From Nitrospinota bacterium (GTDB taxonomy: Bacteria; Nitrospinota_A; UBA7883; JACRGQ01), in NCBI GenBank assembly GCA_016200345.1, contig JACQEX010000022.1, forward strand, positions 1-37,101: a DNA stretch of 37,101 nucleotides. The letters run 5' to 3'. Of the stretch, positions 26,049 through 36,306 are shown one piece after another. Every line of letters starts with the position of its first letter. The stretch's first letter is position 1. The position numbers and the translations under genes are program-made. The notes beneath the pieces were generated by a model. That model was not told where the DNA came from. It was given only the letters and a program-made list of their open reading frames with translations, and did not search any database.

Positions 26049-27020
26049 ATGAGCGTAGCGTTTTTAGATTTTGAAAAACGAATCCTCGAGCTTGAGGGAA
26101 AACTGGAGGAGTTGCGCTCGCTCAGCAAACTCCAGAACACCGATTTTTCCTCCGAGATTAGGAAAATGAACAAAAAGCTCAAGCAACTAAAAAAAATCAC
26201 CTTCTCCAAGCTCAGCAGATGGCAGAAAACCCAGCTGGCCCGCCATCCGGCCCGCCCGTACGCGCTGGACTACATCAAGGAGCTTGCGCCGGACTGGGTG
26301 GAGTTGCAGGGAGACAGGCTTTTCGGAATAGGGCCGTCAATCGTCGCCGGATTCGGCACAATGGAGGGACGATCCGTATTGTTCATCGGAATCCAAAAAG
26401 GGCGCGAGACAAAGGAAAAAATGTTCCGCAATTTCGGAATGCCGCATCCCGAGGGATATCGAAAGGCGCTAAGGCTTATGAAGCTGGCGGAGAAATTTTC
26501 CAGGCCCGTCGTCACGCTTTTGGACACCCCCGGCGCCTTCCCCGGCATAGGGGCGGAGGAGCGCGGACAGGCGGAGGCGGTGGCGCGAAACCTCATGAAG
26601 ATGGCGTCCCTCACCGTGCCGGTTGTCTGCGTGGTCACGGGCGAGGGGGGAAGCGGCGGCGCGCTTGCGCTTGGCGTGGGCAACAAAGTGCTGATGCTGG
26701 AGCATTCGGTCTATTCCGTCATCTCCCCGGAGGGATGCGCCGCGATTTTGTGGAAGGACCAGGCGAAGGTGGAGGACGCCGCGGAGGCTCTGGCCCTCAC
26801 GGCGCAGGATCTTTTGGGCAACAAGATGATTGACGAGATTGTCCGCGAACCGGCCGGCGGCGCGCACAGGGACCCGGTCCTTGCCGCGCACGTTTTGAAG
26901 AGGGTTTTGCGAAGGCACATTGACCAGCTCTCCCAGCTTTCACCGCAGGAATTGGTGAAACAAAGACGCGACAGGTTTAGGAACATCGGCCTTTACTTCG
27001 AGCAATACCCCGGCAAATAG
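26049..27020 (+). CDS. accA: acetyl-CoA carboxylase carboxyltransferase alpha subunit
   Basis: MSVAFLDFEKRILELEGKLEEL start. PGAFPGIGAEERGQAEAVARNL motif. Confidence 0.95.
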   Translation: MSVAFLDFEKRILELEGKLEELRSLSKLQNTDFSSEIRKMNKKLKQLKKITFSKLSRWQKTQLARHPARPYALDYIKELAPDWVELQGDRLFGIGPSIVAGFGTMEGRSVLFIGIQKGRETKEKMFRNFGMPHPEGYRKALRLMKLAEKFSRPVVTLLDTPGAFPGIGAEERGQAEAVARNLMKMASLTVPVVCVVTGEGGSGGALALGVGNKVLMLEHSVYSVISPEGCAAILWKDQAKVEDAAEALALTAQDLLGNKMIDEIVREPAGGAHRDPVLAAHVLKRVLRRHIDQLSQLSPQELVKQRRDRFRNIGLYFEQYPGK

Positions 27021-27055
27021 CCCGTCCCGCCCGGCCTCGAACAACGGGGATTCAA

Positions 27056-27147
27056 CCACGAAAAGCGCGAAATTCACGAAAGGTTTGGTTTAACGTTTTT
27101 CCAGAACCCAATCTTTTTCTTTTCGTGCCCTTTCGTGTTTTTCGTGG
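27056..27147. repeat. left MTase-flanking element: approx. 91-bp imperfect palindrome with three (A/G)CGAAA heptads on the 5' arm and three TTTCGTG on the 3' arm at 9-10 bp spacing
   Basis: CCACGAAAAGCGCGAAATTCACGAAAGG ... CTTTTCGTGCCCTTTCGTGTTTTTCGTGG. Direct-repeat partner at 28070-28160. Confidence 0.75.
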
Positions 27148-27151
27148 TTAG

Positions 27152-28048
27152 TCACTTTTTTATATAGGCGAGGAGGGATTTGGCGACGTGCTCGGCGAGT
27201 TTCACGGGGACGGCGTTTCCGATTATCTGCTCCACGTTCGTCGCGCCCCCGACAAGCTTGAAACTTTTCGGGAACGTCTGGACCATGCTTCTTTCCCTCG
27301 TGGTCAGCGGGCGGAGTCCGTGGATTTTCGCGGCGTCTCCCGGATGGCCGGGGTAGCCCTTTGGCACGGGCCTGTTTACGCCGCGCACCGTGGGGCTTGG
27401 CTCGTCCATTCCGAAAACGCCCCTTCTTGAATAGCTTCTCGGATGGCGGTAGTAATGCTCGACGCCGAGGCTCTTTCCAAAATAATCGCGCATGGTCGTC
27501 TTTTTTGTCGTCAGGCCGTCCGCGAGAAAACTTTCCAAGAATCCGTCCTTGGCGCCGACGGCTCCGATTACGAAAAGCCTTTTTCTTTTCTGCGGGACGC
27601 CGCAGTAGCTAGCGTCCAGAACTTTGGCGGTTATTCCGTAGCCGGATTTTGAAAAAACTTTTCGCGCCTCCGCGAGGGTTTTGGAGTTTAGGGCGAGCGG
27701 GACGTTTTCCATTACGAAATATTGGGGATGAACCGTGCAAACAATCTCGGCGAAGGAGATGGTGAGGTCGGCCTTGCCGCGCGCCTCGTCCCTTTTTCCG
27801 GCGGACGAGAAATCTTGGCACGGCGGGCCGCCGATGATTATTTGCGGGTTGAATTTTTTTATTTCCGACGGCGAGTTTTTGTCCGAGAGGTCGCGCAGAA
27901 AGATCGGATGTCCGTGGAAATTGGCCGCGTACAAATCCACGGCCTTGTCCCAGCCGTCGTATGCGGCGACGATTTTACAGCCGGCGTTAGCAAAGCCAAG
28001 GGAAAGTCCGCCCCCCCCGGCGAACAGGTCAACCGTCCTTAACTCCAT
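27152..28048 (-). CDS. DNA (cytosine-5)-methyltransferase, Dcm-like, with no restriction-endonuclease partner
   Basis: Motif I DLFAGGGGLSLGF, motif IV GGPPCQDFSSAGKR, motif VI ENV. 298 aa. Confidence 0.9.
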   Translation of the reverse strand: MELRTVDLFAGGGGLSLGFANAGCKIVAAYDGWDKAVDLYAANFHGHPIFLRDLSDKNSPSEIKKFNPQIIIGGPPCQDFSSAGKRDEARGKADLTISFAEIVCTVHPQYFVMENVPLALNSKTLAEARKVFSKSGYGITAKVLDASYCGVPQKRKRLFVIGAVGAKDGFLESFLADGLTTKKTTMRDYFGKSLGVEHYYRHPRSYSRRGVFGMDEPSPTVRGVNRPVPKGYPGHPGDAAKIHGLRPLTTRERSMVQTFPKSFKLVGGATNVEQIIGNAVPVKLAEHVAKSLLAYIKK

Positions 28049-28069
28049 TGAAAATCCGGAAAAGAAAAA

Positions 28070-28160
28070 CCACGAAAATCACGAAAAGACGCGAAAGGGG
28101 AAAGTTTGGGTTTTGGCAAACGAAAAAACAATTCTTTCGTGAATTTCGTGTCTTTCGTGG
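28070..28160. repeat. right MTase-flanking element, same architecture and orientation as 27056-27147
   Basis: CCACGAAAATCACGAAAAGACGCGAAAGG ... CTTTCGTGAATTTCGTGTCTTTCGTGG. Confidence 0.75.
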
Positions 28161-28172
28161 TCGTCAAATTCG

Positions 28173-29450
28173 TTATCCGTTTTTAAGCAGTTGGTCGAGA
28201 AGGCGGACGGTTTTTTCGAGCGCGCCCCGGTTGTTCTCCACAGTTTTAATCCCCTGTTCCCCGGCGAATCGCGCCGAGTCTTCGTTTGCAAGCCATTCGA
28301 GCAGAAGTTTTTCCAACTCCGCGCCGTCCGCCGCCAGTTTCCCGGCCCCGGCCTCCAGCAGTTTTTGCGATATCTCCCGAAAATTTTCCATGTGCGGGCC
28401 GAACAGAACCGGCGCCCCCCAGGCCGAGGCCTCCAGCGGGTTCTGCCCGCCGTGTGGCACAAAACTCCCTCCCATCACCGCAACGTCTACGGCCTCGTAC
28501 AATTTGGCAAGCTCCCCCATCGTGTCCAAGACCAAAACGGAATACTTCTCGCACTCCATTCCCGACGAGCGAGTGGCGGGCGCGAACCCGAATTTTTCGC
28601 ACAGGGCCGCAACGTCTTTCGAGCGCGTGACGTGGCGCGGGGCGATTACGAAAAAAAATCCGGTTTCGGCGGACGAGATGTTTTTGGCGGTCTGTAGAAA
28701 GATTTCGTCCTCCCCCGGGTGTGTGCTTGCAAAGACCACCGTCTTCGCTCCGGCGGGGATTTTAAAAATTTTCATCGCAGACTCCTTGGAGGTCCGCGCC
28801 GGCGCCGGCCTGTCGAATTTTATGTTTCCCGTCACCGCAATCCGCCCCGCGTCCGCGCCCATTTTTGAGATGCGCTCCGCGTCGTCCGCCGACTGCATCA
28901 TGAATAGCGAGACCTGGCGCAGGACTGGGCCGATTAAATGCCCCGTCGTTTTATAATTGGCGAACGATTTGTCCGAGATTCTACCGTTGGCCACGGCGCA
29001 CTTAATCCCGCTTTTTTTTGCGGCCAAGATGAAATTGGGCCATAGCTCCGTCTCCAAAAACACCACAGCCGACGGGGAGAAGCGGGCGAGAGCGCGACTG
29101 ACGGCGAACGGAAAATCGAGCGGGAACCACGTTAAATGAACCTTTCCGCCGAGGCGGGCCTTGGCCGTCTCCATCCCGGTTTGGGTGCTGACCGAAAAGA
29201 CAATCGGTTTTTTTTCGCGCTCCTCCAGCAACTCCGCAAGCGGGGCCGCGGTGTTCACCTCGCCGACCGAAACCGCGTGTATCCATATCACGCCCTCCGG
29301 GGCGGGATTTTTCCCGTAAAAGCCGAGCTTGCAAAGTAGGCTCTCCTTGGTCTCCTTGCCCGAAAAAAGACGCCACGCGAGGTACGGCGCCAGCAGAGGC
29401 AGGGCGAGAATAAGAATTAGGTTGTATAAAACCAAAAAGAGGAAAGGCAT
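28173..29450 (-). CDS. waaA: 3-deoxy-D-manno-octulosonic acid (Kdo) transferase
   Basis: N-terminal membrane anchor. GT30 motifs (IWIHAVSVGE...). 425 aa. Confidence 0.9.
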   Translation of the reverse strand: MPFLFLVLYNLILILALPLLAPYLAWRLFSGKETKESLLCKLGFYGKNPAPEGVIWIHAVSVGEVNTAAPLAELLEEREKKPIVFSVSTQTGMETAKARLGGKVHLTWFPLDFPFAVSRALARFSPSAVVFLETELWPNFILAAKKSGIKCAVANGRISDKSFANYKTTGHLIGPVLRQVSLFMMQSADDAERISKMGADAGRIAVTGNIKFDRPAPARTSKESAMKIFKIPAGAKTVVFASTHPGEDEIFLQTAKNISSAETGFFFVIAPRHVTRSKDVAALCEKFGFAPATRSSGMECEKYSVLVLDTMGELAKLYEAVDVAVMGGSFVPHGGQNPLEASAWGAPVLFGPHMENFREISQKLLEAGAGKLAADGAELEKLLLEWLANEDSARFAGEQGIKTVENNRGALEKTVRLLDQLLKNG

Positions 29451-30866: not shown

Positions 30867-31060
30867 CGTTACCCTCCTTGAAATGTTGCCCCTATAATAT
30901 CGTAAAAACAGGTAGGAAGAGTGAATTTCACCACAGAGAGGAAAGAAAAGAAGAAGGATTTGCCCTTCCCCTCCCTCACCCTCCCCCGTAAAGGGTGAGG
31001 GCAAAATAATCGTTTCCCCGTACTCTCCGTGTCTCTGTGCCTCTGTGGTTCATATCCGAA

Positions 31061-31315
31061 TTAGTAATGGTAACGGCAGGCGATAACAACAATCTCGCCG
31101 GCTTTCACCATGTAGACCAGCCGGTGCTCCAGATTGATTCTGCGCGACCAGCAACCGGCAAGGTTGAATTTCAGCGGCTCCGGTTTTCCGGTTCCCTCGA
31201 ACGGCGTTCTTTTTACCTCCTCAAGAAGGGCGAGGATGCGGTCGGCTATTTTTCGCTCGTGGCGGATCCAACGGCGAAAGTCTTCCAACGCCGTGGGGGT
31301 GAAGGAGACGTTCAC
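31061..31315 (-). CDS. yoeB: YoeB/Txe-family type II toxin (ribosome-dependent mRNA interferase)
   Basis: 84 aa. Conserved WSRRI and EHRLVY motifs. Overlaps the antitoxin gene by 4 nt. Confidence 0.9.
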   Translation of the reverse strand: MNVSFTPTALEDFRRWIRHERKIADRILALLEEVKRTPFEGTGKPEPLKFNLAGCWSRRINLEHRLVYMVKAGEIVVIACRYHY

Positions 31316-31566
31316 AAATTAATTTTTTCCAGCGGGACGGTTTTTCCGCGTTTTGCCTCGTCTAGGGATTTTGCAAGACGTTTTGCGTTTGCGGGGTTGG
31401 AGAGCAGGTAGTCGGTCTCGATAAGGGATTCGTAGTCGTCCTGGCTCATGATGATGACGTTTTCCCCGCGCTTTCGGGTGACGACCACCGGTTCGTGGTC
31501 GCGGCAGGCCGAGTCCATGACGACCTTAAGCTTTTGTCGCGCCTTGGTGTAGCTGACAGCCTTCAT
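31312..31566 (-). CDS. yefM: YefM/Phd-family antitoxin
   Basis: Core starts MKAVSYTKARQKL with GGAGGA 5 nt upstream of the ATG at 31566. The upstream in-frame extension in the ORF track is judged spurious. Confidence 0.85.
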   Translation of the reverse strand: MKAVSYTKARQKLKVVMDSACRDHEPVVVTRKRGENVIIMSQDDYESLIETDYLLSNPANAKRLAKSLDEAKRGKTVPLEKINL

Positions 31567-31582
31567 ACTTTCCTCCAAATTA

Positions 31583-31600
31583 TGTACATAATATTGTACG
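31583..31600. promoter_or_regulatory. candidate yefM-yoeB operator TGTACATAATATTGTACG containing TGTACA core hexamers
   Basis: YefM-YoeB operators in E. coli are palindromes built on a TGTACA core. The site overlaps the likely -10 region 17 bp upstream of the antitoxin start. Confidence 0.5.
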
Positions 31601-31757
31601 CTAGCATTTATTTTTCCGCTCCGCAAGGCGGGGAAACGCAGTTGGAAATAAGCCTTGAGGTTTGCGGGGGGTGTTGATATACTCACCGCTTGTTTTTATT
31701 GTTGATAGAAAACCATTTAAAGACCGCGTGATGGTCATTTGGAAGGGGTGAGAGTTT

Positions 31758-31940
31758 TTGCCCGGTATTAGGATAAGGGAAAACGAGTCTTTTGAATTTG
31801 CCCTGAAGCGCTTCAAAAAGCAGTGCGAGAAAATAGGCGTGCTGTCGGAGATACGCAAAAGGGAGCATTACGAGAAACCGTCGGTTAAGAAGAAAAAGAA
31901 GATAATCGCGGCCCGTAAGAAGAAATACAGCCGCTTTTAA
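31758..31940 (+). CDS. rpsU: 30S ribosomal protein S21
   Basis: 60 aa, [28 protein letters not shown] start. Confidence 0.9.
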
Positions 31941-31954
31941 TTTCGAGGTTTGAA

Positions 31955-32413
31955 TTGTCGCTTAAATCGCGCATCGAGGAAGAGTTTAAGACCGCCTTCA
32001 AGGCGCAGGATAAGTTCACCGTGGGCGTCCTGCGCATGATCAAGTCTGAGATGAAGAATCGAGAGATTGAGAAGGGTGGGGCGGGGTACGTCCTTACGGA
32101 CCCAGAGACCGTGGCCGTAGTCTCCGCCGCCATCAAAAAAAGGCGCGATTCCGTGGAGCTCTTCACCAAGGGGGGCAGACAGGAAATGGCCGACGCCGAG
32201 GCGAAAGAGGCCGAATACCTCGCAAAATTCCTCCCCGAAATGATGGGAGAGGACGAGCTAAAGGCCAAAATCTTGGCGGTTATCGCCGGGATGGGTTCCC
32301 CCACGAGCAAGCAGATGGGGCAGGTCATGAAGGCCGTTATGGCCGAGGTGGCCGGTAAGGCGGACAACTCAATGGTAAGCAAACTTGTTAAAGAGGCTCT
32401 TCCAAACGCCTGA
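31955..32413 (+). CDS. yqeY: GatB/YqeY-domain protein
   Basis: 152 aa YqeY fold. Classic position directly after rpsU. Confidence 0.85.
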   Translation: MSLKSRIEEEFKTAFKAQDKFTVGVLRMIKSEMKNREIEKGGAGYVLTDPETVAVVSAAIKKRRDSVELFTKGGRQEMADAEAKEAEYLAKFLPEMMGEDELKAKILAVIAGMGSPTSKQMGQVMKAVMAEVAGKADNSMVSKLVKEALPNA

Positions 32414-32480: not shown

Positions 32481-34205
32481 ATGGCCGAGTTGTTTCCGCC
32501 GGATTTAATCGAGCGCGTCCGCGACTCCGTTGACATCGTCGAGCTAATCTCCTCCTACGTCACCCTTAAAAGAAGCGGCGCCAACTACATGGGGCTCTGC
32601 CCGTTCCACTCCGAAAAAAGCCCCTCTTTCAGCGTGAGCCCCGCCAAGCAGTTTTACCACTGCTTCGGGTGCGGCGAGGGGGGGAACGCCATTTCCTTCA
32701 TCATGAAACGTGAGGGGCTTTCCTTTCCGCAGGCGGTGGAGCAGTTGGCCGGGCGGGCCGGCATAACCCTTCCCAAACGATCCGAGGAGTCGCAGGAGCA
32801 CTCGAAAATTCTGGAGATAAACAAGCTCGCCGCCGAATTCTATAAATCGCAGTTTAAAAAGAACAGCCCCGCTTGGAAATACGCGGAGGAGCGCGGCCTT
32901 TCGCCGGAGACATTGGAAAAATTCCGCATCGGCTACGCGCCGGACGCGTGGGACGCCTGCCTTAAGCATCTGCTGACGAAAAAAATCACCGAGGCGGAGG
33001 TCGAGAAGGCCGGCCTCGCCAAAAAAAGCTCCGCCGGGAACCTTATTGACAGGTTTCGCGACCGGCTTATGTTTCCGATATTGGACGAGCGCGACAGGGT
33101 CGTTGCTTTCGGCGGACGCTCTTTAATAAAGGACGACAACGGCCCGAAGTATCTAAACTCGCCGGAGACGCAGGTGTACGTGAAGGGGAGGGTGCTATAC
33201 GGCCTTAACCGCGCCTCGCAAAGCATCCGCAAGAAGGACCAGGCGCTGATAGTGGAGGGGTATATGGACCTCATCGCGCTACATCAGGCGGGGGTGGAGA
33301 ACGCCGTGGCGTCCTCGGGCACCGCGTTCACCGAGTGGCAGTGCAGGCTTTTGCGAAGGCACACCCCGAATCTCGTGATGGTGTTCGACGGCGACGAGGC
33401 GGGCAAAAAGGCGGCGCAAAGGGCCACGGACGTGGCGGCCACGCTGGGGCTGAGGCCGGCGGTGGTTATGCTCCCGGCGGGCAAGGATCCGGACGACGTG
33501 ATAAAAGGGGGCGGCGCGGAGGCGTTTTTGGAGATCGTAAAAGAGGCCAAACCGTACATGACCTACCTCATCGAGCAGGCCTGCCTTAAGCACGACATGA
33601 CGACGGGCGAGGGGCGGGCCGACGCCGCGCGCTCCATGTTGCCGGAGCTTTCCCGGGTGCGGGATCCGCTGGAGCTTGCGAGTTGCATAAATTTTCTCGC
33701 CCAAAAAACGGGCATCCCTGCGGAAAAAATCGAGGCGCGGCTAAAGGGTAAACCGCCGGAGGCGCGACCCCAGGTCGGCGCCAGAACCCCCGCGCCGTTG
33801 AACGCGACGCTCAACAAGCCGAGGCCGATTAAGCCCGCCTCCCAGCACGAGAAAATCGTGATGCGCGGCTTTTTGGACCATCCGTCGGAGTTGAACGGGA
33901 AGTGGAAGGACGTGACGGCTGACGATTTTGAGACCCCGGGATTCGGCGTGATGGCGGATCATATAAGGAAGTGCCTCGCCGAAAACACGGCGTCGGCGAG
34001 CGACATGATAGACCGGCTGGAGGACGCGGAGCTTGGAAAGAGCATGAGGGCGCTTGCGATGGACGACGGACGGCGCCCCCCGGCGGGACAGTTGGACGCG
34101 TATGTGGACGACCTGCACAAGGCGGGCGAGGCGCGCCGAAAAGAGGCCGAAAGAAGGCGCGAAATAGCCCTTAAAAAAAGCGAGGCGGATAATTTGAAAA
34201 GCTAG
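32481..34205 (+). CDS. dnaG: DNA primase
   Basis: CHC2 zinc finger (CPFHSEKSPSF ... HCFGCG), TOPRIM domain (EGYMD ... DGDEAG), C-terminal helicase-interaction region. Confidence 0.95.
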   Translation: MAELFPPDLIERVRDSVDIVELISSYVTLKRSGANYMGLCPFHSEKSPSFSVSPAKQFYHCFGCGEGGNAISFIMKREGLSFPQAVEQLAGRAGITLPKRSEESQEHSKILEINKLAAEFYKSQFKKNSPAWKYAEERGLSPETLEKFRIGYAPDAWDACLKHLLTKKITEAEVEKAGLAKKSSAGNLIDRFRDRLMFPILDERDRVVAFGGRSLIKDDNGPKYLNSPETQVYVKGRVLYGLNRASQSIRKKDQALIVEGYMDLIALHQAGVENAVASSGTAFTEWQCRLLRRHTPNLVMVFDGDEAGKKAAQRATDVAATLGLRPAVVMLPAGKDPDDVIKGGGAEAFLEIVKEAKPYMTYLIEQACLKHDMTTGEGRADAARSMLPELSRVRDPLELASCINFLAQKTGIPAEKIEARLKGKPPEARPQVGARTPAPLNATLNKPRPIKPASQHEKIVMRGFLDHPSELNGKWKDVTADDFETPGFGVMADHIRKCLAENTASASDMIDRLEDAELGKSMRALAMDDGRRPPAGQLDAYVDDLHKAGEARRKEAERRREIALKKSEADNLKS

Positions 34206-34331: not shown

Positions 34332-36056
34332 ATGACCATTAAAAAGCTCCAGAAACTACCCGAGGTTCAACAGCTTCTAAAACTTGGCAAAGGCAAGGGG
34401 TTCGTAACCCACAAGGAGTTCGCCACCGCTTTTCCGCCCAACCTCTTCAATGGCGACCAGCGCGACAGCCTTTCCCGCTATTTCGTCGAGGAAAACTCCG
34501 TTCCCATCACCTCCGACGAGGAAAAGAAGCCGCATAAGGCCGCAAAGCCGGTAGTAAACTCGACCTTGGCGGACGAGGTGGAGGACGTTCCTTCGCTCTC
34601 CTCCGAGGATCCGGTCAGGATGTACCTAAAGGAGATGGGGAGCATTCCGCTTCTTACACGCGAGGGCGAGGTTTTCATCGCAAAGCGGATAGAGACCGCG
34701 CAAAACAACATTCTCGACGCGATCGTGACCTGCCCCCTGACGATGGAGGAGATCCTAAAACGCCTCGCCGGGCTGAAGGACGGAAGCATTCCGGTCCAGA
34801 CGCTCGTCAACTGGGGGGACGTGGAGGAGACGCCGCTTACAAAAATTATATCCGAGGGGAAGAGGGTGGAGCGCACCATCGGCAAACTGAACAACGCATA
34901 CCTGGACTGGCGCAAGTTCAACTCCAAACCGGCGCCGAAGAAACAGACCCCCAAGGAGGCGGCCAAGGTCGTCGAGAAAAATAAAAAGCACATAGAGGTG
35001 TTGAGGAAACGGCTGGGCGACATCAACCTCAACCAGGGGCGGTTAGACGAGATAATCGAGGCAATCGGCGTTAAAAACCGCGCGTGCCTCTCGCTGGCGC
35101 ACGAGATTGACAAAATGACCGTCTCGTTGGAGCCGCCGGCCGCCGTCAAGGGAAAGAAAAAAGGGAAGGCCGTCCACGTCGTCCACCACAAGCCGGTGAA
35201 CAAGGCGGAGGTGAAGAAAAAAATTCTCGTCGCGCGGGCGAAGTTGAAGGTGCTTGAAAAAGAGACCGGCCTTGGCGGGCCGGTTTTGGCCGCGATAAAG
35301 AGAAGGATAGACATAGGCCGGCTGACCGACAGACAGGCGAAGAAGGAGCTTGCCGAGGCGAACCTTCGCCTCGTGGTCTCCATTGCGAAAAAATACACGA
35401 ACCGCGGCTTGCAGTTTCTCGACCTGATTCAGGAGGGAAACATCGGCCTTATGAAGGCGGTTGACAAGTTCGAGTACCGCCGCGGCTACAAGTTTTCGAC
35501 CTACGCCACGTGGTGGATTCGACAGGCAATCACGAGGGCCATCGCCGACCAGGCGCGGACGATAAGGATACCGGTGCACATGATTGAGACCATCAACAAG
35601 CTCATCCGAACGGCGCGGCACCTTGTGCAGGAGCTGGGGCGCGAGCCGAAGCCGGAGGAGATAGCGCTTAAGATGGGCATGGCGGTGGAGAAGGTTCGGA
35701 AGGTTTTGAAAATCGCGGAGGAGCCGATTTCTCTCGAGACGCCGATTGGCGAGGAGGAGGATTCGCACTTAGGGGACTTTATCGAGGACAAGAAGATGCT
35801 CTCGCCGGTTGACTCGGTGATTAAGATGAATTTGAAGGAGCAGACCGCGAAGGTTCTGCAGTCGCTCGCGCCGCGCGAGGAGATGGTGCTGAGGAAACGC
35901 TTTGGAATCGGGTTGGACGCGGAGCACACGCTCGAGGAGGTCGGCCAGGATTTCGAGGTGACGAGGGAGCGCATAAGGCAGATAGAGGCGAAGGCGTTGC
36001 GGAAGCTGAGACATCCGAGCCGGAGCAAGCGGCTTCGCAGTTTCGTGGAGTCTTAG
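34332..36056 (+). CDS. rpoD: RNA polymerase sigma-70 factor RpoD
   Basis: Regions 1.2, 2 ([37 protein letters not shown]), 3 and 4 ([17 protein letters not shown]). Confidence 0.95.
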
Positions 36057-36229: not shown

Positions 36230-36306
36230 GGGCCTATAGCTCAGTTGGTTAGAGCCCCCGGCTCATAACCGGGTTGTCCTAGGTTCAAGTCCTAGTGGGC
36301 CCACCA
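36230..36306 (+). tRNA. tRNA with CAT anticodon (elongator Met or lysidine-type Ile2; G1-C72 pair argues against initiator)
   Basis: 77-nt cloverleaf folded by hand: acceptor GGGCCTA/TGGGCCC, D-arm GCTC-AGTTGGTTA-GAGC, anticodon arm CCCGG-CTCATAA-CCGGG, T-arm CTAGG-TTCAAGT-CCTAG, CCA encoded. Confidence 0.85.

Follow-up and report, generated by a model that had tools for sequence, protein, structure and literature searches.

When a solitary DNA methyltransferase gene is closely bracketed by two elaborate palindromes, an obvious question arises: did the palindromes carry the gene in, or did they settle around a gene that was already in place? This question is raised by a 37,101-nucleotide stretch of DNA from a Nitrospinota bacterium (contig JACQEX010000022.1 of assembly GCA_016200345.1; hereafter, the window), where an orphan C5 cytosine methyltransferase (MTase) gene lies between two hairpin elements, E1 and E2, built of phased CACGAAA-type heptads. 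An earlier note on this DNA, made from the sequence alone, favored the former possibility and viewed the MTase with its repeats as a cassette. We come to a different view: E1 and E2 are probably two gene-less copies, resembling miniature inverted-repeat transposable elements (MITEs) or REPINs, of a widespread inverted-repeat family whose full form carries a GxxExxY gene. The argument is carried by four results documented below: the anatomy of E1 and E2, the assignment of their arms to this family, the succession of events around the MTase gene, and the modular behavior of the full-length unit.

Two inverted hairpins around a methyltransferase gene

Phased-array detection and folding delimit E1 as a 96-bp heptad-array hairpin without assigned strand (27054-27149), with a left arm AACCACGAAAAGCGCGAAATTCACGAAAGG (27054-27083), a loop of about 35 nt, and a right arm CTTTTCGTGCCCTTTCGTGTTTTTCGTGGTT (27119-27149). 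It lies 33 nt past the accA stop codon and 2 nt from the stop codon of the MTase gene. E2, likewise without assigned strand (28068-28161; 94 bp), consists of arms at 28068-28098 and 28133-28161 around a loop of about 35 nt, and is located 11 nt past the waaA stop codon (28173-28175) and 19 nt from the MTase ATG; the distances to the MTase gene are close to the 4 bp and 21 bp given in the earlier note. Taken together, the two imperfect palindromes contain 12 CRCGAAA/TTTCGYG heptads, three per arm, with start-to-start distances of 9-10 bp, and this part of the earlier description is borne out by pattern counts, shuffles and folding alike. Specifically, 10 of the 13 exact CACGAAA copies in the whole 37-kb window fall inside E1 or E2; the paired-heptad pattern has 6 matches in the window against 0.51 expected; and a generic detector of three phased 7-mers identified 4 arrays, all of them arms of E1 and E2, against 0.1 in shuffled sequences. 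Folded as single-stranded DNA, the two elements form hairpins with z-scores from -3.3 to -6.8, the extreme value being that of E1 (-24 kcal/mol, z -6.8).

The elements had been described as near-identical and as lying in the same orientation, and neither statement holds: in global alignment, E1(+) is 68.7% identical to E2(+) and 79.2% identical to E2(-), so that the best alignment is the inverted one. The same is seen in the loops alone (51% identity direct, 69% inverted) and in an inverted pair between E1 and E2, designated I2 (81% over 53 nt). The loop similarity is mutual and common to no other locus, and this lineage-specific loop suggests at least one copying event within the lineage of the window. 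In their build, E1 and E2 resemble MITEs, being short and non-coding, with complementary terminal inverted repeats of about 30 nt; no target-site duplication is seen at the flanks of E1 (gattc / agtcac) or E2 (tttgacg / ttttctt).

Arrays shared with the ends of a GxxExxY unit

What is the longer element to which such ends belong? In four loci (L034, L037, L055 and L097; comparison loci are denoted by L and a number), the genes between arrays encode GxxExxY proteins (TIGR04256/PF13366, PDDEXK_3) of about 126 amino acids. The full-length unit comprises some 440 bp, with one array over or just before the start codon and the reverse-complement array just past the stop codon. The association was assessed in 80 independent metagenome loci that were fetched by protein alone and yielded 75 genes with enough flanking sequence. 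An array of at least three heptads was found at most 80 nt upstream of 58 of the 75 genes (77%) and at most 100 nt downstream of 57 (76%), with arrays on both sides in 44; control windows 500-700 nt away from the GxxExxY genes contained arrays in 0 of 211 cases. The heptad variants (CGCGAAA, CACGGAA, CACAGAA) agree on the two sides of a unit.

The arms of the elements in the window belong to this same family: those of E1 are identical at 29 of 30 positions to the terminal arrays of the units in L230 and L248, and those of E2, also at 29 of 30, to the arrays of the units in L249 and L241. E1 and E2 further share with GxxExxY units the inverted arrangement of arrays (at least three phased heptads, CCAC-type) and the AACC/GTCC outer end. 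Hence, one suggestion of the earlier note, that the palindromes might be hairpin ends of a non-autonomous mobile unit, gains support, inasmuch as the GxxExxY unit has these arrays as its terminal inverted repeats. As the loops of E1 and E2 span only about 35 nt and the window contains no PF13366 gene, the two elements are regarded as gene-less derivatives. Hairpins and units also occur side by side: gene-less hairpins directly adjoin units in L242 and L263, runs of the gene-hairpin-gene-hairpin type with GxxExxY are found in L257 and L285, and L155 contains a frameshifted GxxExxY pseudogene between arrays. When GxxExxY remnants were sought in hairpin loops, this pseudogene and a weak match in L032 were recovered, loops of the size of those in E1 and E2 being too short.

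In 17 of 78 units (e.g., L220, L224-L226, L230, L242, L248 and L249), the array starts with ATGAAC and is translated in frame as an N-terminus of the MNHEKHERHEK type, so that the repeat in the DNA also yields a variable repeat in the peptide; other heptad types translate as N-terminal tails of the NTKDTK or SVSSVPSV type. The protein family is very large (20,236 clusters at 50% identity), has the invariant residues D71, E81 and K83, and, according to a structural model, adopts the PD-(D/E)XK fold, with matches generic to that fold, namely, restriction enzymes, Cas4, Hjc and tRNA-splicing endonuclease. T7 endonuclease I was considered as a relative and dismissed, the sequence match not being significant (E 0.18). 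A survey of the superfamily lists the function of the GxxExxY family as unknown and notes "multiple transfers" between divisions (PMC3424549). A literature search yielded no description of the heptad arrays or of the array-GxxExxY unit.

A module exchanged among defense operons

To judge from comparisons of related loci, the full-length unit behaves as a discrete, horizontally exchanged module that is often wedged between the genes of restriction-modification (R-M) operons. In the related type III operons L242 and L281, both flanks are 85-100% identical and the unit 52-78%, the drop occurring exactly at the arrays; in the distant operons L226 and L242, the relation is reversed, with flanks 25-60% and the unit 63-80% identical. 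Between L123 and L204, MTase, Vsr and APH are 70-90% identical, and the hairpin slot is unalignable, with different heptad types. At least 27 of the 80 GxxExxY loci lie inside defense operons (type I, type III and BREX, bacteriophage exclusion), and the clusters of neighboring genes comprise type I methyltransferase, specificity and restriction genes, type III methyltransferase and restriction genes, helicases, and BrxC. By eye, KilA-N-like DNA-binding open reading frames (ORFs; ...GRYGGTYAHKD...) also recur next to GxxExxY units in R-M contexts (L037, 2879-3136; upstream segments of L225 and L226).

Spread and build of the array family

The genome scan covered one genome per species and employed the pattern CCACGAAA-NN-CRCGAAA-N2-3-CRCGAAA, which biases it to the CACGAAA type; by our own estimate from information content, about 0.5 matches of this triple-heptad pattern are expected by chance. 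The pattern was found in at least 120 genome stretches from about 12 phyla, and 76 further triple-heptad stretches came from IMG/VR viral contigs, so that the element, which the earlier note knew from one locus, has numerous relatives. Among the matches listed are Verrucomicrobiota, Planctomycetota, Lentisphaerota/Kiritimatiellota, Acidobacteriota, Gamma- and Betaproteobacteria, Desulfobacterota, Gemmatimonadota, Spirochaetota, Cloacimonadota, Armatimonadota, Chloroflexota and Bacteroidota, with Methylotuvimicrobium buryatense 5G and Rhodocyclus purpureus DSM 168 as cultured carriers; Deefgea spp. have the arrays, too.

The consensus of the array is tttAA-CCACGAAA-nA-CACGAAA-na-CACGAAA-a, with the family flanks reading TTTAA...TTAAA and containing no T-run; arms start with AACCACGAAA or GTCCACGAAA, and a GTAG/CGTC tag is absent. 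Among the matches listed for the genome set, about 30% of arrays are accompanied by a reverse-complement partner with which they give an E1/E2-like hairpin, the remaining forms being solo arrays, tandem runs and nested hairpins, and gene-less hairpins of the E1/E2 build are dispersed in many genomes. Sister arrays have the same build with other heptads (CACGAAT, CACGGAA, CACAGAT, CGCGAAA, GCCAAGG). The inter-heptad spacers vary freely from element to element; between the two arms of one element, they are complementary at 69% of positions, compared to 40% (maximum 53%) for shuffled partners.

In array-rich genomes, arrays bracket ordinary genes as well (TrmL, HemL, AroC, NuoL, YggS, FolE), and a short gene with a hairpin on either side is therefore unremarkable there. 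Thus, heptad arrays do flank genes elsewhere, recurrently in the case of GxxExxY and also in that of housekeeping genes, and no recurrent cargo other than GxxExxY was found between arrays, the rest being housekeeping genes, toxin-antitoxin genes and spurious ORFs. Genes in the fetched loci, mostly metagenome-assembled genomes (MAGs) or metagenome contigs, were called by a crude ORF rule. The orientation of arrays relative to their neighbors was ambiguous in two attempts (-/- 33, +/- 28, +/+ 19, -/+ 18) because high-GC shadow ORFs confound the gene calls, and an approximately twofold excess of solo arrays with a same-strand gene ending upstream over the mirror case is not robust.

Several further observations concern the forms that arrays take. 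In phage contigs from IMG/VR, solo arrays occur several per contig, on one strand, in 30-45-nt gaps between co-directional genes, and often stop 0-15 nt ahead of the next start codon (L196, 926-951, 4522-4547 and 5791-5816; L200, 2204-2229 and 9717-9742; and numerous further loci). Nested palindromes, in which an outer CACGAAA or CACGAAG hairpin encloses, in its loop, an inner hairpin (CGAAT type) or a small ORF, are present in L029 (1692-1800), L099 (4420-4562) and L033 (5070-5470), as if hairpin loops were preferred landing sites. Gene-free arrays run head to tail in L015 (5415-5625), L094 (105-414) and L120 (3820-3955); in the gut bacterium UMGS1058, CACGAAA x3 alternates with CACGAAT x3 with a period of about 95 bp, and the head-to-tail run of a Prevotellaceae MAG has a period of 37 bp. 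In L046 (1846-2439), a TrmL gene bracketed by two hairpins matches the TrmL models in two separate parts, between which lie about 45 additional residues that could be an in-frame insertion.

History of the waaA-methyltransferase locus

Was the MTase gene, then, in place before the repeats? The closest WaaA relatives are 63-65% identical, so the nearest lineage available for comparison is already distant. In this sister lineage (L204-206 and L127), the gene order is Band_7-DUF374-waaA-MTase-Vsr-hairpin-APH-NADK-GGDEF, and the MTase gene starts within the last codons of waaA; because the two genes overlap, there is no room for E2. In the more distant L209 (WaaA 53% identical), APH follows 6 nt after waaA, without MTase, Vsr or a phased array. 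Between the window and L204, the identities are 85% for Band_7, 74% for DUF374, 63% for WaaA and 66% for the MTase, which therefore diverged together with its neighbors. Vsr, APH and NADK of the sister lineage were looked for in the window and are not present, so that no rearrangement partner was found. The slot after Vsr is occupied by a CAGATT-type hairpin in L204 (5557-5632) and by a GCCAAGG-type hairpin in L123 (about 1840-2010); thus, three lineages have three hairpin types, each directly 3' of the same MTase module, and close MTase homologues in other phyla (L123-L126) are without CACGAAA arrays.

These gene orders establish a succession of events in which an MTase(-Vsr) module was inserted at the 3' end of waaA prior to the split of the window and sister lineages; E2 is a later insertion between waaA and the MTase gene in the window lineage, and, in the same lineage, Vsr was lost and the downstream side rearranged against accA. 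The MTase is an old resident orphan, a remnant of a Dcm-Vsr module, rather than repeat-borne cargo. This order of events removes the cassette interpretation: the orthologous MTase gene is found without E2 in L204-206 and L127, an outcome that, as far as E2 is concerned, the earlier note had itself named as refuting the cassette, and the presence of the supposed cargo does not coincide with repeat boundaries, as L204 has the MTase without E2 and L209 has neither MTase nor repeats.

Weighing the explanations

Could the MTase gene and the repeats on either side nonetheless have arrived as one unit through repeat-to-repeat recombination, or be open to deletion in this way? Compared to the outgroup L209, the MTase(+Vsr) module does represent an insertion; a phased-heptad hairpin lies directly downstream of this module in three lineages, which resembles cassettes consisting of an ORF plus a 3' hairpin; and the gene-hairpin-gene-hairpin runs of some GxxExxY genes (L257, L285) look cassette-like. 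Against this stand the orthologous MTase of the sister lineage, which overlaps waaA and has no upstream repeat, the divergence of the MTase, which is the same as that of its neighbors, the unrelated heptad types of the downstream hairpins in the three lineages, the MTase homologues of other phyla (L123-L126), which have no CACGAAA arrays, and the similar bracketing of housekeeping genes elsewhere; furthermore, E1 and E2 are inverted and 79% identical, so that deletion between direct repeats is not available. We consider this scenario very improbable. Even more remote, to the point of being negligible, is the notion that E1 and E2 are integron attC sites lacking an integrase, with the MTase gene as an integron cassette. 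The comparison is invited by the size (90-95 bp) and imperfect symmetry of the palindromes and by the 7-bp boxes that recur in each arm, and E1 begins with ATTCAAC, which fits RYYYAAC; however, E2 is without the R'' and R' core sites, and the right end of E1, GTTAGTC, misses GTTRRRY. The core-site test, thus, effectively refutes attC identity, and the other features concur: each arm has three boxes at 9-10 bp instead of two at about 12 bp, sequence is conserved across phyla beyond structure, the arrays of full-length units stand inverted on both sides of the gene, and an integrase is absent from the window and from the recurrent neighbors of the units.

A more serious contender, albeit still an unlikely one, is that the hairpins are host cis elements that tune operon junctions, that of waaA and the MTase gene among them, either as RNA stem-loops (terminator, attenuator, RNase III processing site or stabilizing structure) or as phased operator arrays bound by a protein. 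E2 lies between genes that are co-transcribed in relatives and, on the minus (mRNA) strand, is followed by UUUUUCUUUU; the U-rich spacer directly after its stem (28049-28067, minus strand) reads UUUUUCUUUUCCGGAUUUUCA on the mRNA strand, and no clear Shine-Dalgarno sequence was found in it. On the plus strand of E1, a U-run is 8 nt off, and the stems are A/U-rich and interrupted. The fallback of the earlier note, that the elements are bidirectional terminators, draws weak support from the U-tract of E2, whereas the consensus flanks of the family have no T-run; a promoter and terminator scan gave nothing convincing at E1 or E2. The RNA of E1 on the plus (accA) strand folds well (-52.3 kcal/mol, z -5.0), but on the mRNA strand both elements fold just slightly better than shuffled sequences do (z about -1.9), and an Rfam scan of the window, by gathering score and E-value threshold, placed no family on either element (the best on E2 were two chance-level matches, E 0.09, far under the gathering score; a tRNA was found elsewhere in the window). 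The co-varying spacers of the arms, the overlap of the array with the start codon in GxxExxY units, the position of phage solo arrays right ahead of start codons in short co-directional gaps, and a fixed heptad at helical spacing, which suggests protein recognition, all fit a cis element; conversely, the occurrence of one and the same heptad in phages and in about 12 phyla speaks against a host-specific regulator, a given slot holds different heptad types even among close relatives, and the similarities of unit and flanks are discordant. Mobile hairpins often acquire regulatory effects, and the two readings are not mutually exclusive; E1 and E2 may be gene-less copies and still have a regulatory effect on transcripts.

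Several points weigh against gene-less copies of a GxxExxY element as well. The 37-kb window lacks a GxxExxY gene, and just two copies of the element are visible there, compared to several per 8 kb in other genomes; no target-site duplication is seen at E1, at E2 or at the ends of GxxExxY units; and the nearest relative, at 63-85% protein identity, provides no filled/empty pair for E1 or E2. The step from unit to hairpin is backed by a single pseudogene and one weak remnant, and in most hairpins the loop is too short to be informative. The structural model of the GxxExxY protein is moderate (pLDDT, the predicted local distance difference test score, 69.5) and resembles proteins of this fold in general, and any binding or cutting of the arrays by the nuclease is a supposition. 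The association between arrays and GxxExxY could reflect control of expression, through pairing of the 5' and 3' ends of the mRNA, rather than mobility, and the phage solo arrays in tiny co-directional gaps misfit a simple MITE picture.

With these reservations, the origin of E1 and E2 as gene-less copies can be envisaged as follows. A Dcm-Vsr-type module, with an MTase probably specific for GRCGYC, was already in place at the 3' end of waaA before E2, one of the hairpin copies, came to lie between waaA and the MTase gene, and the related copy E1 occupies the slot after the MTase gene, where Vsr was lost. Such hairpins might derive from GxxExxY units via internal deletion or be mobilized in trans, as MITEs and REPINs are, with the GxxExxY nuclease presumably acting on the arrays or on their hairpin or cruciform form. 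Once transcribed, E2 could serve as an attenuator or a processing stem between waaA and the MTase gene. The proximity of the two elements to an MTase gene may reflect the R-M preference of the family or may be a coincidence, as this is one locus only. A broader proposal, which is well conceivable but which we advance more tentatively, is that heptad arrays and GxxExxY form a class of small mobile cassettes, of which we found no description, that slots between operon genes, preferentially in type I, type III and BREX defense operons, has a range of at least 12 bacterial phyla and their phages, and leaves behind gene-less hairpins such as E1 and E2; under this proposal, the nuclease would recognize the arrays or their cruciform or hairpin and drive insertion or exchange without target-site duplication.

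Comparison with known systems

The closest parallel is the REP/REPIN-RAYT system (repetitive extragenic palindromes with REP-associated tyrosine transposases), which likewise combines dispersed non-autonomous intergenic palindromes with a partner gene flanked by inverted repeat copies, co-inheritance of repeat type and protein, and turnover of repeat types at the same intergenic slots. The differences are substantial: the partner here is a PD-(D/E)XK nuclease (PF13366) of about 126 amino acids, not an HUH/Y1 (IS200/IS605-like) transposase, and the arms consist of three phased heptads instead of a GTAG/CGTC-tagged palindrome of 20-35 nt. Furthermore, RAYTs are usually single-copy and vertically inherited, whereas the partner gene here is multicopy and horizontally exchanged, and the heptad spans about 12 phyla and phages. 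With MITEs (the Correia elements of Neisseria, ERIC, RUP, Nezha), E1 and E2 share two terminal inverted repeats around a short loop, the intergenic location, co-transcription with neighbors into RNA hairpins, and ends common to a longer coding element, a part that would be played here by the GxxExxY units, with a putative role of the enzyme in mobility. Unlike MITEs, they show no target-site duplication, no DDE transposase is present, their ends are internally repetitive, and the very small nuclease that serves as coding partner has its start codon within the repeat.

Integron cassettes resemble the GxxExxY units in that a small promoterless ORF is accompanied by a 60-140-bp imperfect palindrome, may occur in runs, and is exchanged between unrelated contexts; here, however, core sites and IntI are lacking, inverted arrays stand on both sides of the ORF, and the sequence is conserved. 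A parallel can also be drawn to the intervening sequences (IVS) of 23S rRNA (S23p of Leptospira and Coxiella, PF05635), in which a small multicopy ORF is enclosed by inverted repeats that pair in the transcript and which insert without destroying the function of the host transcript; the units differ in the protein family and in residing in mRNA operons, especially R-M ones, not in rRNA helices. The phage solo arrays, and only these, recall the stoperators and start-associated sequences of mycobacteriophages, with many copies of an asymmetric motif in tiny gaps upstream of starts, although motif and host range are unrelated and this likeness is peripheral to the window.

The methyltransferase and its neighborhood

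The MTase gene (27152-28048, minus strand) encodes an intact orphan type II C5 cytosine MTase of 298 amino acids (PF00145, 2e-61, residues 4-292; TIGR00675; PADLOC MTase_II, 1e-129) with all catalytic motifs (FAGGGG, PPCQ, ENV, QKRKR, GNAVP). As the earlier note had it, no endonuclease, Vsr or transposase gene was found nearby in the window (Vsr was also sought by tblastn), and the GC content of the gene (0.565) is like that of its neighbors (0.575 and 0.577). Upstream and in the same direction lies waaA (28173-29450, minus strand; Kdo transferase), followed on the minus strand by DUF374 and Band_7, the three forming the conserved anchor Band_7-DUF374-waaA. On the other side, accA (26049-27020, plus strand) converges on the MTase gene in a lineage-specific junction, the relatives having Vsr-APH-NADK. 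The flanking genes were, thus, correctly named in the earlier note, but their 3' ends are not both convergent, since waaA is co-directional with the MTase gene.

Along its entire length, variable region included, the MTase shares 66% identity with a homologue (P0004) encoded next to an RE_HindVP endonuclease, and it is 66% identical to homologues paired with Vsr; unlike the BsaHI/HgiDI/HindVP-type MTases and the Dcm-Vsr pairs, it is accompanied by neither endonuclease nor Vsr. Endonucleases of the RE_HindVP family (BsaHI, HgiDI, HgiGI) cut GRCGYC (PMC2413257). Given the full-length identity to a protein adjoining a member of this family, GRCGYC is the likely target of the MTase. The window contains 118 such sites against 57 expected, that is, the site is not avoided, and it is absent from both E1 and E2. 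A run of eight C on the plus strand (28012-28019; G8 on the coding strand) encodes the motif I sequence FAGGGG, and the same G8 run is present in the L204 orthologue. Homopolymer tracts in MTase genes can cause phase variation, but this run may simply reflect the choice of Gly codons. Farther away, past Band_7, a PhdYeFM-ParE/YoeB toxin-antitoxin pair and ribosomal protein S21 were recognized by Pfam matches on the identical Logan contig (L001, 202-1081), which place them at about 31000-32400; then come two adjacent plus-strand ORFs (32481-34205 and 34332-36056), both of 574 amino acids, which may be tandem paralogues, and a tRNA (36230-36303).

Implications

Through the array-GxxExxY association, PF13366/TIGR04256, a very large family of proteins whose function is unknown, becomes linked to a defined DNA architecture that is exchanged in a modular manner at array boundaries, the units showing a strong preference for R-M and BREX operons. 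At the same time, a class of intergenic hairpins found in many phyla and in phages gains an explanation. If the nuclease acts on the arrays, the two would constitute a new pairing of repeat and enzyme, comparable to REPIN-RAYT but chemically distinct, and a possible route by which defense operons are remodeled.

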